Of a stretch of DNA of 64,000 nucleotides, positions 17,225 through 25,113 are shown one piece after another; position 1 is the first letter of the stretch, and every line of letters starts with the position of its first letter. The stretch comes from an uncultured Candidatus Rokubacteria bacterium (GTDB taxonomy: Bacteria > Methylomirabilota > Methylomirabilia > Rokubacteriales > DASRDR01). The notes beneath the pieces were generated by a model that was not told the DNA's origin, did no database searches, and saw only the letters and a list, made by a program, of their open reading frames with translations. The DNA lies in the NCBI GenBank assembly GCA_963805625.1, contig CAWDVE010000017.1, positions 512,001-576,000 on the forward strand. Direction: 5' to 3'. A program made the translations under genes and the position numbers.

Positions 17225-18601
17225 CTACGGCCAGACTGGCGGGTGCGTGCCGAGCGGGACGACCGGGCGCTCCCAGCGGGGTGGAGTCTCGGACATCTCG
17301 AGCGCTGGCCGCAGGTGCTTCAGGCGGCCGAGCGGTGTCTGGGTTTCAGTGCAAAGATCGTCGACGTTCTCGAGGCCCCGGGCCGCCGCGGGGTCGCAAA
17401 TCGGGCCGAGGCGATGGAGCCACATGCCGGTCTGGCACAGCGAGGCACGGACGAGGTAGCTACCGCCGGCGTGGGCGCGACGCCAGAGCGCCACCATGGC
17501 GCCGAGCGCGGCCAAATAGCCGGTCGTGTAATCGCAGACCGCCGCCGGGATGCGCACCGGCCGTTCCGGCGAGCTGTGGGTCGCGGTCAGACCGGTGACC
17601 GTCTGGGCCAGTTGCTCCCAGCCGGGGCGCGCCTCCCAGGGACCAACGTGGCCGTAGCAGTTGATCGCGACGTAGATCAACCCCGGCCGCAGCTTCACCA
17701 GTTCAGTCGGGCCAAAGCCCCGCCGCGCCAGTGAGCCGGACCGGTAGCCCTGGGAGAAGACGTCCGTTTCGCGGAGCAGCCCACGCAGTTGCTCGACGGC
17801 GTCGGGCTTTTCGAGATCCAGGTGGGCCGCGAGCTTGCCGTGTCCGGTGTCCAGGACGAACCCGAGCGGACTGGGCAGGTTGGGCGAGGCGATGTGCAGC
17901 ACGTCGGCGCCGTGCTCGGCCAGGGTCCGGGCACAGGTGGGCCCGGCCAGGATGCGGGTCAGATCGAGCACCCGCACGCCCCGCAGTGGCCGGTCGGCGG
18001 CCGGCAGCGGCTCCGGGTCGGAGTCGCCGAGCTTGACGATCTCGACCCGCGGCACCTCGGCGAGAGCCTGGCCCTGGGGGTGCGCGGCCCATTCCTCGGC
18101 CGTGCGAAGCAGCGCGCCGCACTGGCGCGCCTCGGCCAGAGCGTTCTCGAGCGCCCGGCCGTCCCAGCGAGCCACCGCGGCGGCGACCGCCTCGCGTTCG
18201 TTGGCGCATCCGAGCATCTTCAGCGTGCCCTCCGCCAGATTCGGGAGTCCTCCGTGGAGGTGGACCCAGCGCCCGTCGCGGCAGCGGTAATAGTCCACCA
18301 GCGGGTTGCCCGTCGCGGGCGAGGGCGGGGCAGGCCCGCCGTTCAGCCGCAGGATGGGGTGGCTGCGGAGGGAGGCCGCGGCGTGCCGCACACTGACCCG
18401 CGACCGCTGCGGCCGCCCCCCGCGAAGCTGCCAGAGCGCGTCCGCGGCCACACCGCAGGCGGCCAGCGTCAGCGCCGCGGCCTCGCCAACCGGAAAGGCG
18501 GTGGCCACGACCGGGTCCTGTCCCTCGATCGTGACCGCCCCATCCGCGGGCGCCGGCAGACCGACCTCGTCCAGTAGCTCGAGCAGCCGCGCGTCGGTCA
18601 T
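17225..18601 (-). CDS. CaiB/BaiF (family III) CoA-transferase, long form
   Basis: PLRGVRVLDLTRILAGP, HGADVL, DVFSQGYR, CDYTTGYL; GGGAGAGGGAG RBS before ATG 18601. Confidence 0.9.
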   Translation of the reverse strand: MTDARLLELLDEVGLPAPADGAVTIEGQDPVVATAFPVGEAAALTLAACGVAADALWQLRGGRPQRSRVSVRHAAASLRSHPILRLNGGPAPPSPATGNPLVDYYRCRDGRWVHLHGGLPNLAEGTLKMLGCANEREAVAAAVARWDGRALENALAEARQCGALLRTAEEWAAHPQGQALAEVPRVEIVKLGDSDPEPLPAADRPLRGVRVLDLTRILAGPTCARTLAEHGADVLHIASPNLPSPLGFVLDTGHGKLAAHLDLEKPDAVEQLRGLLRETDVFSQGYRSGSLARRGFGPTELVKLRPGLIYVAINCYGHVGPWEARPGWEQLAQTVTGLTATHSSPERPVRIPAAVCDYTTGYLAALGAMVALWRRAHAGGSYLVRASLCQTGMWLHRLGPICDPAAARGLENVDDLCTETQTPLGRLKHLRPALEMSETPPRWERPVVPLGTHPPVWP

Positions 18602-18753
18602 CTCCCTCTCCCATCCGGTCGTCAGGAGCGACCGGGACTCGGACCATGCTAGCACTCCGAGGGGTCTGGCTTCGGGTAGGCCGACGTCCTCGACGCGATC
18701 GTTGGACTCGTGGGACACTGCGGGCAAGCCAGTCGCGCCCAAGGGAGAGGCCG

Positions 18754-19659
18754 ATGACGTTCGCCGCCGAGCCCGACGTTCCCATCCCCTACATGCAGCG
18801 CACGCGCGACTACTACCAGGCGCTCGGCTTCGCGCCTTATCGCTGGGCGCACTTCACCGAAGTGCCGTTCACGCCGCTGGCCAAGCCGCTGGCCCAGTCA
18901 CGGGTCGCGCTCATCACCACGGCGGCGCCGTACCAGCCCGGCGCCGGCGACCAGGGCCCGGGCGCGAAGTACAACGCCGCCGCGAAATTCTACACGGTCT
19001 ACTCCGACTCCACCGAGACGATCCCCGACCTGCGCATCTCGCACGTCGGCTACGACCGTATCCACACGACGGCCGGCGACCCGCGAACCTGGCTGCCGCT
19101 GGGGCGACTTCACGAGTTCGTGAAGGCGGGCCGCATCGGCGCGCTGACGCCGCGATTTCATGGGGCGCCCACCAACCGGAGCCAGCGGGTGACGACGGAG
19201 ACGGACGCGCCCGAGCTACTTCGGCGGTGCCGCGAAGACGGCGCCGACGTGGCGTTGCTCGTCCCGACCTGACCGGTGTGCCACCAGACCGTGAGTCTGG
19301 CGGCGCGGCACCTCGAGACGAACGGGATCCCGACGGTCATCATGGGATGCGCCAAGGACGTCGTGGAGCACTGTGGCGTGCCGCGCTTCCTCTTCAGCGA
19401 CTTCCCCCTCGGAAACTCGGCCGGCCGCCCCGACGACGCCGAGTCGCAGACCTTGACGCTGGAGCTGGCGCTCCGAGTGCTGGAGACGGCGCCCGCTGCC
19501 CGGACCACGGTGCAATCGCCGCTCCGGTGGCGGGCCGACGCGTCCTGGAAGGTCGACTACCACAACCTGGCCACGGTCACGCCCGGGGACCTCGCCGAGC
19601 ATCGCAAGGAGTTCGACGTCGTGAAGGCCATCATCAAGAGCAAACAGACGCCAGCGTGA
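18754..19659 (+). CDS. Glycine/sarcosine/betaine/D-proline reductase selenoprotein-B-like protein, Sec at UGA 19270-19272
   Basis: KPLAQSRVALITTA, DVALLVPT-U-PVCHQTVSLAARHLE.NGIPTV; ORFs 18646..19272 and 19276..19659 are in one frame across the TGA; UxxC motif. Confidence 0.88.
19278..19311 (+). promoter_or_regulatory. Putative bacterial SECIS hairpin
   Basis: CCAGAC-CGTGA-GTCTGG upper stem-loop, loop starting 18 nt after UGA with G at loop position 2; GTGCC/GGCAC lower stem. Confidence 0.7.
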
Positions 19660-20849
19660 GCAAGCCATTCGCCGGCGTCCGCATCCTCGACTTCACCCGC
19701 TATCTCGCCGGCCCGTACGGCACCTACCAGCTGGCCCTCCTCGGCGCCGACGTGATCAAGATCGAGTCGCGCGACGGCGACGAGACCCGCAGCCAGCCCG
19801 TCTCCAAGGTGTGGGCGGACCGCAGGATGCCGCCGAGCTTTCTGGCCGTCAACGGCAACAAGCGCAGCATGACGCTCGACCTGCGGCGGCCGGAGGCGGT
19901 CGTGGTCGTCAAGCGGCTCGTCTCCAACGCCGACGTCGTGTGGGAGAACTTCCGCCCCGGCGTGATGGACAAACTCGGCCTCGGCTACGACACCCTCGCG
20001 GCACTCAACCCGCGGCTCATCTATTGCGCGGTCTCCGGATTCGGCCACACGGGACCGGAGCGGACCACGGCCGCCTTCGACGGCAAGCTGCAGGCGATGT
20101 CCGGGATCATGTCGATCACCGGCGAGCCGGACGGCGGCCCGATGCGCGCGGGTTTCGCCATCTGCGACACGATCGGCGGCATGACCGCGGCGCTGGCAGT
20201 GGCGAGCGCGCTCTACCAGCGCACGCACACCGGCCGCGGCCAGTTCGTCGACGTGGCCATGCTCGACGCCGCGCTCGCCTTCATCCCGGGGCCGGTGTCG
20301 GAGTACACCGTGGCCGGCATCGAGCAGACGCAGATCGGTAACGGCTCGGTGAGCCGCAAGCCCACGGCCAATCGCTTCCGGGCCAGGGGCGGCTACATCG
20401 TGCTCGCCGTGCTCACCGAGAAGCAGTTCGTGAGCCTCATGACGACGATCGGGCGCCCCGACGCGCTCCTGGACCCTCGCTTCAAGGACTGGGCGGCGCG
20501 GATGGAGCACGTGGCGCCGCTGCGCGAGGTGATCGAGGGCGCGCTGGCCAGGGACGACCCCAAGACCTGGGAGACGCGGCTGACCGCCGCCGATGTGCCG
20601 TGCGCGTGCATCTGGAAGATCGACGAGATCGTCGAGCATCCGCAGCTTGAGCACCGCGACGTGCTGCAGACGATCGACTCGCGCTACGGCCCTATGCGCC
20701 TCGTCGGCGCCGGCTTCCGCCTCGCCCACGGTACCCCGGGCCTCGACCGCCAGCCACCCACGCTCGGTGAGCACACCGACGAGATCCTGACCGAAGCCGG
20801 CTACACCGCCACGGAGATCGAGCAGCTGCGACGCGACTCCGTCGTATAG
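19656..20849 (+). CDS. CaiB/BaiF (family III) CoA-transferase
   Basis: PFAGVRILDFTRYLAGP, GADVIKIE, NGNKRS, ENFRPGV; GTGA overlap with the selenoprotein stop. Confidence 0.92.
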   Translation: MSKPFAGVRILDFTRYLAGPYGTYQLALLGADVIKIESRDGDETRSQPVSKVWADRRMPPSFLAVNGNKRSMTLDLRRPEAVVVVKRLVSNADVVWENFRPGVMDKLGLGYDTLAALNPRLIYCAVSGFGHTGPERTTAAFDGKLQAMSGIMSITGEPDGGPMRAGFAICDTIGGMTAALAVASALYQRTHTGRGQFVDVAMLDAALAFIPGPVSEYTVAGIEQTQIGNGSVSRKPTANRFRARGGYIVLAVLTEKQFVSLMTTIGRPDALLDPRFKDWAARMEHVAPLREVIEGALARDDPKTWETRLTAADVPCACIWKIDEIVEHPQLEHRDVLQTIDSRYGPMRLVGAGFRLAHGTPGLDRQPPTLGEHTDEILTEAGYTATEIEQLRRDSVV

Positions 20850-21317
20850 GAACGGGGGCCCTTCGAACGGATTCCAAGCCTCCGTGAGCGGGTCGGGACC
20901 GCCATCTTCGTGATTTCCGCTTTCTTCAAGCGAAGACTCCCGACGAGGAGGGGAGAACCAACCTGCGCTGACTCCCAGTCGTGTGAGCCCATCTCGCGTG
21001 ACTTCGTCGACGCGACGGTATCGAAGTCGCTCTCGTTCCGCCTCGAACGCGCTGCCGCCCGCAATATGTTCCTTGACTCGGCCCGCGTGAGATGGTCAGC
21101 ACTACACGTGTCCACGCGGCCAGCATCAGAGAGCGACGATGAGGCGCAGCTCCATACGGGCCGGTGCCGTGAATGCGAAAGGGGTCCTTCCACCAACACG
21201 CGGTGGCAACGGCGTGACTGGATCCCCGCGCGTGAGAGCGTCGGCGGGGTGGGGCGCTCGGCCGCCGCCGCCACGTGCCGAAGCTCGGGCGCGCAAGCCG
21301 TGGTGGTGTGCCTAGAG
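20330..21317 (+). repeat. Direct repeat copy 1 (CoA-transferase 3' end, spacer and DMT stop), with ~310 bp extra internal segment
   Basis: Near-identical to 25405-26071 from GCAGATCGGTAACGG to CTAGAG. Confidence 0.9.
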
Positions 21318-21975: not shown

Positions 21976-22974
21976 ATGCGACAGACTCGGATCCGACCTC
22001 TTGCGTGCCTCAGCGCCACGGTGGCGGTCCTCATGCTCGGCGTGGCGCTCGCCGGGAGCGCCCTGGCCCAGGCCAAGTATCCGACCCGGCCGATCGAGGT
22101 GGTGGTGCCCTACGCGCCCGGTGGCGGCACCGACAACCTCATGCGGATGATCGTCGGGATCATCGACGAGAACAAGTGGTCGCCGGAGCCGCTTAACATC
22201 GTCAACAAGGCCGGGGGAAGCGGCGCGGTCGGCTACAGCTACACGATCAGCAAGAAGGGCAATCCCTACGTGGTCTGTGGGGCCACTCCCACCATCGTCA
22301 GCGGCAAGCTCGAGGGCCGATTGCCGGGCGACCACCGGGACGCCCTTCCAATCATCATGATCGTGGCCATCGACGAGCTGATGCTGTCGGTTCGGGCCGA
22401 GTCCCCGTACCAGACCGTCGAGCAGTTCGTGAAGGCGGCCAAGGACAAGCCGGGCCAGCTGACGATGGGCGGCACCGCCACCAATTCCGAGGACCACATC
22501 TTTACCTATCTCTTCGAGAAGGCGGCCGGCATCAAGGTCAAGTACGTGCCCTTCAACTCCGGGGGCGAGGTGACGGCGGCCCTGATGGGCGGCCACATCG
22601 ACGCTGCGGTCGAGAACCCCAACGAAATCGTGGCCCAGATCGAGGCCAAGAAGGCCCGAAACCTGGCGGTGGCCGCCAAACAGCGGATGAAGGACGCCGC
22701 CGACGTGCCGACCTTCCGGGAGAAGGGCTACGACTTCCTGTGGGAGCAGATGCGCGGGGTGTGTGGCCCGGCCGACATGGGGGCCGAGGCCATCAAGTGG
22801 TGGCAGGACACCCTCCGGAAAGTCACCGAGACCCCCAAGTGGCAGACCCAGTACATCAAGCGGAACCTCCTGACCCCAGTCCAGTGGGTGGGCGAAGAGG
22901 CCAACGAGTACCTGGACAGCCTCCGGGGCAAGTACACGGACGCCCTCACCGCCCTCGGGGCCATCAAGAAGTAG
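21976..22974 (+). CDS. Tripartite tricarboxylate transporter substrate-binding protein (TctC/Bug)
   Basis: Signal peptide; YPTRPIEVVVPYAPGGGTD, NKAGGSG, VPFNSGGE..ALMGGHID. Confidence 0.92.
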   Translation: MRQTRIRPLACLSATVAVLMLGVALAGSALAQAKYPTRPIEVVVPYAPGGGTDNLMRMIVGIIDENKWSPEPLNIVNKAGGSGAVGYSYTISKKGNPYVVCGATPTIVSGKLEGRLPGDHRDALPIIMIVAIDELMLSVRAESPYQTVEQFVKAAKDKPGQLTMGGTATNSEDHIFTYLFEKAAGIKVKYVPFNSGGEVTAALMGGHIDAAVENPNEIVAQIEAKKARNLAVAAKQRMKDAADVPTFREKGYDFLWEQMRGVCGPADMGAEAIKWWQDTLRKVTETPKWQTQYIKRNLLTPVQWVGEEANEYLDSLRGKYTDALTALGAIKK

Positions 22975-23026
22975 GCGCGACCGGGGTCGGGGCCCGTCCG
23001 GGACCCGACCCCTCCCGAGCCCCTCG

Positions 23027-23479
23027 ATGCGCTTCGCTGACCGCGTGGCCGCGGTGGCCCTGATCCTTCTCGCGGCCTGGTTCGTCGCCCTCGGGCGGCG
23101 CTTCCCCTACTGGCATCCCGACACCGGCCCCGGCTCCGGGTTCCTCCCGGTGTGGCTGGGCCTGGCCCTGGGGGTGCTGGCTGCCCTCCTGTTCCTGAAC
23201 GCCGGGGGCGCGACTCCCGGCGGCGCCTGGGCCCCCGGCCGGGTCGCCCTCCGGCGGCTCGCCCTCATCCTGGCGGCCAGTGTGGTCTTCGTGGCGGCCA
23301 TGGACACCGTGGGGATGATCGTGGGGACCGCCCTGTTCCTGGTCTTCGTGCTCCGGGTCGTTGAGCGCTATCGCTGGACGACCGTGGTGGGAGTGGCGGT
23401 GGCGGCGGCGGCCGCGAACTACCTGGTGTTCACCTACTGGCTGCGCGTCCCGTTCCCCACCGGCTTTCTGGGGGTCTGA
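23027..23479 (+). CDS. TctB small permease
   Basis: Four hydrophobic helices; GPGSGFLP, LRVPFPTG. Confidence 0.85.
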   Translation: MRFADRVAAVALILLAAWFVALGRRFPYWHPDTGPGSGFLPVWLGLALGVLAALLFLNAGGATPGGAWAPGRVALRRLALILAASVVFVAAMDTVGMIVGTALFLVFVLRVVERYRWTTVVGVAVAAAAANYLVFTYWLRVPFPTGFLGV

Positions 23480-23598
23480 CCGGTGATGACCGCACCGGTC
23501 GTGCGTCCGCGTCCGGTCGGCCCCCAGGGCGGCGGGGGGGCAGCCACCCGCGAAGTGAGCCGGGGGGCAGGCGCCGAGCCTCCCCGCGGGGACTGACC

Positions 23599-25113
23599 GT
23601 GGACGAGATTCTCGGCAACCTGACCCTCGGCTTCTCGATCGCCCTCAGCCCCTTCAACCTCCTGATGGCTGCCGCGGGCGTCACCGTCGGCCAGCTCATC
23701 GGAGCCCTCCCCGGGATCGGTCCGGTCTCGGGGGTGGCGCTCCTCCTGCCGCTGACCTTCGGCATGCCCCCCACCTCCGGCATCATCATGCTGGCCGGGA
23801 TCTACTACGGCTCCCAGTACGGCGGCACCATCACGTCCGTCCTCATCAACACTCCGGGTGAGTCGGCCTCGGTCGTCACCTGCCTGGACGGTTACCAGAT
23901 GGCCCTCAAGGGTCGGGCCGGGCCGGCCCTGGGCATCGCCGCCTTCGGATCGTTCATCGCCGGGACGTTCGGGGTGGTCATGCTCATGCTGATGTCCCCC
24001 ACCCTGGCCCGGTGGGCGCTGTCGTTCGGCCCCCCCGAGACCTTCGCCCTGATGCTGCTGGGCCTGACCACGGTGACCGGGCTCACCGGGGAGAACGCCA
24101 TCAAGGGTTACATCAGCATGGTGCTGGGGTTGATGCTCGCCATGGTGGGCTTCGACATCATCTCCGGCGACCCGCGCTATGCCTTCGGCGTCAACGAGCT
24201 CCTGGACGGCTTCGACTTCCTGCCGGTGGCCATCGGTCTGTTCGGGATGGGCGAGGTGCTGGTGGGGGTCGAGCAGGCCCTGGACCTCAAGGTCCTCCAG
24301 GGACGGTACGGGATCCGGGACGTCCTGCCGACCGCCGCGGACTGGGCTCGCAGCCGGTGGGCGATCGCGCGCGGCACGGTGCTCGGCTTCTTCGTGGGCA
24401 TCCTGCCCGGGGCCGGCTCCACCATCGCCTCGTTCTTCTCCTACGCGGTCGAGCGGAAGTACTCGAAGCACCCCGAGGAGTTCGGGCACGGGGCCATCGA
24501 GGGGGTGGCCGGGCCCGAATCGGCCAACAACGCCGCCTCGGCCGGGGCCATGGTGCCCCTCCTGACCCTGGGCATCCCCGGCTCCGGCACCACCGCGATC
24601 CTGCTGGGCGGCCTCATGATGTGGGGCCTCCGCCCGGGGCCCCTCCTGTTCGAGAAGAACCCCGACTTCGTGTGGGGCCTCATCGCCTCCATGTACATCG
24701 GGAACGTGATCCTGGTCATCCTGAACATCGCCTTCATCCCCGTCTTCGTGCGGGCGCTGCGCATCCCCTACAGCATCCTGATGTCGCTGATCATCGTCTT
24801 CTGCATCACCGGCGCCTTCGCCGCCAACAACCGGGTGTGGGACGTCGGCGTGATGCTGGCCTTCGGGGTCCTGGGCTACCTCATGCGCAAGCTCGACTAT
24901 TCGGCGGCCGCCCTGACCCTGGCCTTGGTGCTCGGCCCCCTGGCCGAGCGGGCGCTCCGGCAGTCCCTCATCATCTCCGATGCCGGGGTGCTCATCTTCG
25001 TCCAGCGTCCCATCGCTGCGGTGCTGACCTCCCTGGCCATCCTGGCCGTCCTGGTCCCCACTGCCCGCGGCCTCTGGGCGCTGGCCCGGGGCCAGCGGAG
25101 CGTCCCGGCTTGA
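23599..25113 (+). CDS. TctA large permease
   Basis: GALPGIG, YYGSQYGG, GPESANNA, LTLGIPGS. Confidence 0.93.
   Translation: MDEILGNLTLGFSIALSPFNLLMAAAGVTVGQLIGALPGIGPVSGVALLLPLTFGMPPTSGIIMLAGIYYGSQYGGTITSVLINTPGESASVVTCLDGYQMALKGRAGPALGIAAFGSFIAGTFGVVMLMLMSPTLARWALSFGPPETFALMLLGLTTVTGLTGENAIKGYISMVLGLMLAMVGFDIISGDPRYAFGVNELLDGFDFLPVAIGLFGMGEVLVGVEQALDLKVLQGRYGIRDVLPTAADWARSRWAIARGTVLGFFVGILPGAGSTIASFFSYAVERKYSKHPEEFGHGAIEGVAGPESANNAASAGAMVPLLTLGIPGSGTTAILLGGLMMWGLRPGPLLFEKNPDFVWGLIASMYIGNVILVILNIAFIPVFVRALRIPYSILMSLIIVFCITGAFAANNRVWDVGVMLAFGVLGYLMRKLDYSAAALTLALVLGPLAERALRQSLIISDAGVLIFVQRPIAAVLTSLAILAVLVPTARGLWALARGQRSVPA

Follow-up and report, generated by a model that had tools for sequence, protein, structure and literature searches.

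In clostridial D-proline reductase, the selenocysteine (Sec, U) of PrdB is reported to attack pyruvoyl-bound D-proline at its alpha carbon; the U151C variant is inactive (PMC11229817). According to a review, the steps proposed for Prd and Grd both act on non-activated carbons, with no carbonyl activation (PMC10298544), and FarB is predicted to attack a C–F bond without a Schiff base (PMC10838667). Prd and Grd normally come with partners: PrdA is encoded in the prd cluster, and GrdB-type proteins are accompanied by grdE, grdA, grdC and grdD. Here, we analyzed a 64,000-nt stretch from an uncultured Candidatus Rokubacteria bacterium (contig CAWDVE010000017.1, positions 512,001 to 576,000; hereafter the window), which contains a PrdB-like selenoprotein gene running into a family III coenzyme A (CoA)-transferase (CaiB) gene. 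The feature is real and belongs to a known selenoprotein family, whose proposed CoA-dependent variant of Prd/Grd chemistry is probably undescribed.

The preliminary description of this locus spoke of a possibly undescribed catabolic module. The selenoprotein itself is no new find, its family having been on record under the name 'proline reductase PrdB' since 2005–2008. Zhang, Fomenko and Gladyshev (2005) reported 42 Sargasso Sea genes with UxxC, the third most abundant selenoprotein family there (PMC1088965), and Zhang and Gladyshev (2008) counted 235 members with Sec and 110 with Cys in Global Ocean Sampling (GOS) data (PMC2398784). In supplementary dataset 3 of the latter, UPVCHQ occurs 86 times and the first 'Proline reductase' entry is a close relative of the window protein; it is the same PF07355-related family with UxxC. 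As far as the accessible text of both papers goes, the clostridial function is assigned by name, with no partner gene, CoA link or functional test. A link of the family to CoA-transferases or ligases was not found in the open-access literature, and the available portions of PMC13188914 and PMC1794560 make no mention of one.

Two open reading frames (ORFs; 18646..19272 and 19276..19659) form a single frame through an in-frame TGA (Table 1), as described previously, yielding VPT-U-PVCHQ and ending at the true stop, TGA 19657–19659. Translation likely starts at ATG 18754 rather than at 18646, because this codon is preceded by AAGGGAGAGG and homologs also begin there. Across 108 homologous genes (from 66 loci of the Genome Taxonomy Database (GTDB), 40 further regions and the window; matches missing the U column were excluded), the U codon was TGA in 63, TGC in 32 and TGT in 13, the latter two encoding Cys (45 genes), with the reservation that related genes are not independent and kinship inflates these counts as well as those for the hairpin below. 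C-P-V-C-H-Q was present in 119 of the 120 database homologs listed (out of at least 8000 matches), C176 was invariant in two homolog alignments, and nearly all matches from the phylum among those listed bore a single TGA. The closest loci, 72–88% identical, were mostly labelled Ca. Rokubacteria or Methylomirabilota. Judged on these patterns, the TGA is almost certainly read as Sec.

Behind the TGA lies a hairpin (CCAGAC-CGUGA-GUCUGG) of the bacterial Sec insertion sequence (SECIS) type. Taken alone, its stability is within chance (z −1.48; 17 of 200 shuffles were as stable); over the family, a mismatch-free 5-bp stem in a constant position 3′ of the codon was present in 59 of the 63 TGA genes but in 5 of the 45 with Cys; the Ser codon within the stem was AGT in 56 of the 63 TGA genes, a codon making up a mere 3.3% of Ser codons in this genome. 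An Rfam search gave no match. The genome encodes selA, selB, selC (tRNA-Sec) and selD. Of these, selB is spread over two overlapping ORFs (L006:5589-7501), probably an assembly frameshift given that selA, selC, selD and the TGA-bearing genes are intact. An actinobacterial paralog (L269:3769-8700) is situated directly upstream of selD-, selA- and selB-like genes, as judged by their N-terminal sequences.

The best model match of the window protein was clostridial PrdB (TIGR04483, E 1e-28), with which it shares UxxC at the corresponding place and the format of a short B-type subunit; however, it missed the equivalog cut-off (100 vs. 300 bits). It is also homologous to the C-terminal half of GrdB, GrdF, GrdH and FarB (PF07355, 27.6 bits at a cut-off of 22) and presumably has the Sec nucleophile in common with them. 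Yet GrdB-type proteins are ~430 aa long, whereas the match of the window protein is confined to model positions ~208–423, leaving it without the N-terminal 200 positions, and all GrdB-type NCBIfam cut-offs were missed. While GrdB has UxxCxxC (PMC13188914), the third Cys is missing from the UPVCHQT of the window protein. A sequence search of the PDB retrieved no relative, and the predicted structure, an alpha/beta fold (predicted local distance difference test, pLDDT, 77), gave no Foldseek match at E<=0.001, the best fold-search hits being generic alpha/beta folds (Z up to 9.9).

As had been noted, no Grd or Prd partner subunit is encoded in the window. Elsewhere on contig C10 (~1,702,133–1,706,774, minus strand; L005:10134-14775), the same genome carries a separate grdC-grdA(U)-grdB(U)-grdE cluster; GrdD was not found over cut-off anywhere in this genome. 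The sole PF09338 gene of the genome sits on C10 beside the cluster's own GrdB, which is full-length and 26% identical to the PrdB-like protein over 161 aa. Among 34 other, non-rokubacterial hosts, many of them incomplete assemblies, neither PF09338 (PrdA/GrdE) nor PF04723 (GrdA) was detected in any, both searches being positive in the present genome as a control. The earlier view of a stand-alone enzyme is thus supported with regard to independence from PrdA, GrdE and GrdA.

The partner that the survey did find is the downstream CoA-transferase, whose GTG start (19656) overlaps the PrdB-like stop as GTGA. In all 25 loci labelled Rokubacteria, this gene followed within 1 kb, and in 23 of them it overlapped the stop. 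The preliminary description had coupled the selenoprotein gene to both flanking CoA-transferases: adjacency proved conserved for the downstream gene, but not for the second one, which is indeed divergent across ~150 bp but a neighbor only here. Since just one of 66 related loci had an ortholog near the gene, 4.7 kb away, the divergent CaiB was rejected as part of the module and probably stands outside it.

CoA-transferases accompanying PrdB-like genes ('cognate' CaiBs) formed one clade in a quick tree (25 of 58 rows; Shimodaira–Hasegawa-like approximate likelihood ratio test 99). They share PF02515 and the conserved Asp with Frc, SUGCT/CaiB and YfdE; the window member has Asp171 (invariant among 38 sequences), presumably the active-site Asp known from Frc/CaiB, and a nearly invariant Arg234. 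It nevertheless reached none of seven NCBIfam equivalog cut-offs (best, 274 of 750 bits), and its clade has R/K residues where other CaiBs have H-P-x-x-x-P-Y.

The two genes also travel together on a genomic scale, with the caveat that related genomes are not independent in any of the following counts, so that Fisher tests on them exaggerate significance. In Rokubacteriales (60 genomes, selected by PrdB-like status), a cognate CaiB was present in 20 of 20 genomes with a main-subfamily gene and in 2 of 40 without, one of these two at a contig edge and the other having no PrdB-like gene beside the CaiB; both genes vary together even within genera. Out of 401 alphaproteobacterial genomes, 20 had a PrdB-like gene and nine a cognate CaiB (>=50% identity; four candidates scored per genome; one of the nine was the chosen center), and all nine fell within the 20, with seven pairs adjacent and two unlinked. 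A betaproteobacterial order (301 genomes) contained five genomes with a cognate CaiB and 11 with a PrdB-like gene; four genomes had both, one of these four through subfamily 2. Overall, the pair was co-present though unlinked in four genomes (G472, G354, G789 and G173). Of 78 loci devoid of the cognate CaiB, 8 had one from another clade no more than 600 nt away (~5 independent cases); for comparison, this genome has 17 CaiB genes in 6078 called genes. A mirror correlation of pairwise identities (rho 0.82, 38 pairs) was discarded as confounded by shared ancestry.

Independent of gene order, 25 of 38 longer homologs were fusions to an acyl-CoA ligase with CxxC intact. They fall into two types (14 and 11 proteins), whose ligase parts are only ~26% identical and which occupy different branches of a FastTree phylogeny (96 rows, with most near-identical rokubacterial rows and rows <250 aa left out); in this tree, betaproteobacterial members that use the cognate CaiB form the sister group of one of the types (support 99). 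Apparent CaiB fusions (PF02515 in 4 of the 38) were dismissed as adjacent-gene artefacts, P0143, P0156 and P0157 being frameshifted or garbled. A metagenome scan with a ligase fusion retrieved 80 loci, all of which had a ligase but lacked a PrdB-like gene. Together, cognate CaiB co-occurrence and ligase fusions support the conserved tie to CoA chemistry that had been suggested, and from these gene associations we consider it likely that the family is linked to acyl-CoA.

How could such an enzyme work? The reading we favor, to which we give an even chance, is a Sec enzyme that dispenses with Stickland partners and acts on a small acid first activated with CoA by CaiB or the fused ligase. CaiB would load CoA onto an alpha-substituted carboxylate. 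The thioester would activate the alpha carbon and stabilize an enolate, taking over the job of the pyruvoyl group of clostridial PrdA/GrdE. U173 could then attack the alpha carbon or a sulfur on it, and C176 would resolve the adduct to an Se–S bond, freeing both the leaving group and an unsubstituted acyl-CoA akin to acetyl- or succinyl-CoA. Glutaredoxin or thioredoxin may re-reduce U-x-x-C, in line with the glutaredoxin-like gene that comes directly after the PrdB-like gene in three subfamily-2 loci, while the product acyl-CoA would probably serve as CoA donor for CaiB, closing the cycle with no ATP spent. That the family performs alpha-cleavage at all is, on its own, also a balanced proposition. 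Mercaptopyruvate sulfurtransferase carries out similar chemistry. A functional analogy is further offered by the glutathione S-transferase (GST) lyases LigG and NaGST-Nu, in which a thiolate is proposed to cleave an alpha-carbonyl thioether, with the enolate as leaving group (PMC5892560); their fold is unrelated and their chemistry glutathione-based, whereas in the present case a CoA thioester would provide the carbonyl, and U-x-x-C is the redox pair. A CoA thioester, which would activate the alpha position and at the same time act as an enolate sink, would explain why the pyruvoyl subunit is dispensable and how many hosts manage with Cys. Indeed, that Cys forms are common in this family although the corresponding exchange inactivates clostridial PrdB fits a more activated substrate.

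Both substrate and catabolic role we infer. As the bond cleaved, alpha C–S would be our first guess and C–N or C–halide our second, the substrate perhaps being an anionic sulfur-bearing acid (alpha-mercapto or alpha-thioether). We lean toward an anionic sulfur compound because of the basic residues in cognate CaiBs and the scattered sulfur-related neighbors, i.e. rhodaneses (L215, L226 and L266 by Pfam, L217 by clustering), a CDO_I thiol dioxygenase (L017; L219 just below cut-off) and sulfite exporters (L219, L220, L228). Betaine was disfavored as first-choice substrate only by the same basic residues, a weak argument.

Several observations weigh against this proposal. The sulfur-related genes amount to a raw count of ~9 of 127 loci, and the surveyed loci held no conserved transporter, regulator or downstream enzyme pointing to a substrate. 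No CaiB was found directly downstream in 49 of 91 main-subfamily loci with room for one, and the cognate CaiB was absent from 11 of the 20 alphaproteobacterial hosts under the scoring given above. Conversely, it occurred with no PrdB-like gene detected beside it in G114 (82% complete), or anywhere in the genome in G616 of the betaproteobacterial order. Nor are all fusion partners CoA enzymes, as four longer homologs (P0123–P0126) carry an APH/MtnK (5-methylthioribose-kinase)-like kinase and one a Ser/Thr kinase domain.

These points bear on what else the protein could be. A less probable reading, although the foremost of the alternatives, keeps it in CoA metabolism and replaces alpha C–X cleavage of a carbon source by thiol-disulfide or repair chemistry, such as reducing CoA mixed disulfides or persulfides, freeing alkylated CoA or handling a thiol from the CaiB pathway. 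The links to several unrelated CoA enzymes and the missing conserved transporter would then be explained, as would a CxxC glutaredoxin-like gene found directly after a Cys-type subfamily-2 gene in three loci (L226:6026-8348, L227:6056-8372 and L231:5669-6812), two of which also have a different CaiB. However, near-confinement of one CaiB clade to genomes with a PrdB-like gene suggests a dedicated substrate, and the characterized relatives Prd and Grd cleave C–N bonds, with C–F cleavage predicted for Far (PMC10838667). We deem it unlikely that the family is a general antioxidant, be it peroxidase or thiol oxidoreductase, with CaiB as a co-regulated passenger inherited along. U-x-x-C is a common redox motif, GrdB has a peroxidase side activity, up to six paralogs occur in one marine genome, and more than half of the loci lack an adjacent CaiB. 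The abundance of the family in oxic seawater reported in PMC1088965 and PMC2398784 agrees with such a role, too. Yet a mere passenger would not be expected to show what is seen here: ligases fused on two independent occasions, CaiBs of different clades captured repeatedly, and the pair kept together in genomes where it is unlinked.

Much less probable still is that the protein serves the genome's own Grd system as an additional B subunit with a substrate of its own, using GrdE, GrdA and GrdC in trans. The cluster on C10 makes this conceivable, and organisms in which several B subunits feed one reductase are known (PMC10838667). But that cluster already has its full-length and only distantly similar GrdB, the PrdB-like protein is devoid of the N-terminal portion of GrdB models, and the 34 other hosts yielded neither of the two partner domains. 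Finally, a genuine stop at the TGA, leaving a broken or split gene, may appeal to the chance-level stability of the single hairpin and to the split selB of this assembly. This we regard as most improbable, since the column contains only TGA, TGC or TGT, the hairpin is tied to TGA, a single TGA recurs in nearly all listed matches of the phylum, and selA, selC and selD are intact.

Beyond the module, two segments of the window recur as ~94% identical copies: 25405..25936 matches 20330..20875, comprising the 3′ end of the cognate CaiB, and 25941..26071 matches 21186..21317. Both copies belong to a partial duplication bracketing TctC/B/A transporter genes at 22033..25113. Within the wider family, a distant U-G-L-C subfamily (L272:2251-7842, L281:2207-8394) has surroundings that differ from the CoA module, its conserved cluster including a radical SAM protein and a metallophosphoesterase besides other shared genes, and one marine gammaproteobacterial genome (G003) encodes six TGA-bearing paralogs (L033, L264–L268).

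Table 1 Coordinates of the PrdB-like gene, its predicted recoding elements and the flanking CoA-transferase genes in the window
Feature	Position	Strand	Remarks
PrdB-like (PF07355-related) selenoprotein gene	18754..19659	+	301 aa, U173-P-V-C176-H-Q
Predicted selenocysteine codon (U173), in-frame TGA	19270..19272	+	Column TGA or Cys in homologs
TGC codon of C176, predicted resolving cysteine	19279..19281	+	Putative role
Bacterial SECIS-type hairpin within coding sequence	19277..19307	+	Upper stem 19284..19300, loop CGUGA
Cognate family III CoA-transferase	19656..20849	+	397 aa; PF02515 E 3e-113, above cut-off
Second, longer family III CoA-transferase	17225..18601	-	458 aa; PF02515 E 1e-54

In oxic seawater, few predicted selenoprotein families are as abundant as the 'PrdB' family, which also has thousands of Cys forms. 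Annotations widely call it proline or glycine reductase, even though the subunits required by those enzymes are missing from its hosts. What the survey of partners adds to this known family is the CoA link, which points to acyl-CoA substrates. Tentatively, and with somewhat less than even confidence, we propose that the family constitutes a new enzyme class of acyl-CoA alpha C–S/C–N/C–X reductases, bringing Stickland-reductase chemistry to aerobes by letting a CoA thioester replace the pyruvoyl subunit, with CoA cycled via a dedicated CoA-transferase or a fused ligase. The ligase fusions with CxxC, being selenium-free, single-chain proteins, make the function directly assayable. If true, the proposal would reveal an unrecognized route by which small organic acids are stripped of sulfur or other substituents; should the mechanism hold, it would represent a new way to cleave alpha C–heteroatom bonds, and thousands of annotations would be corrected.

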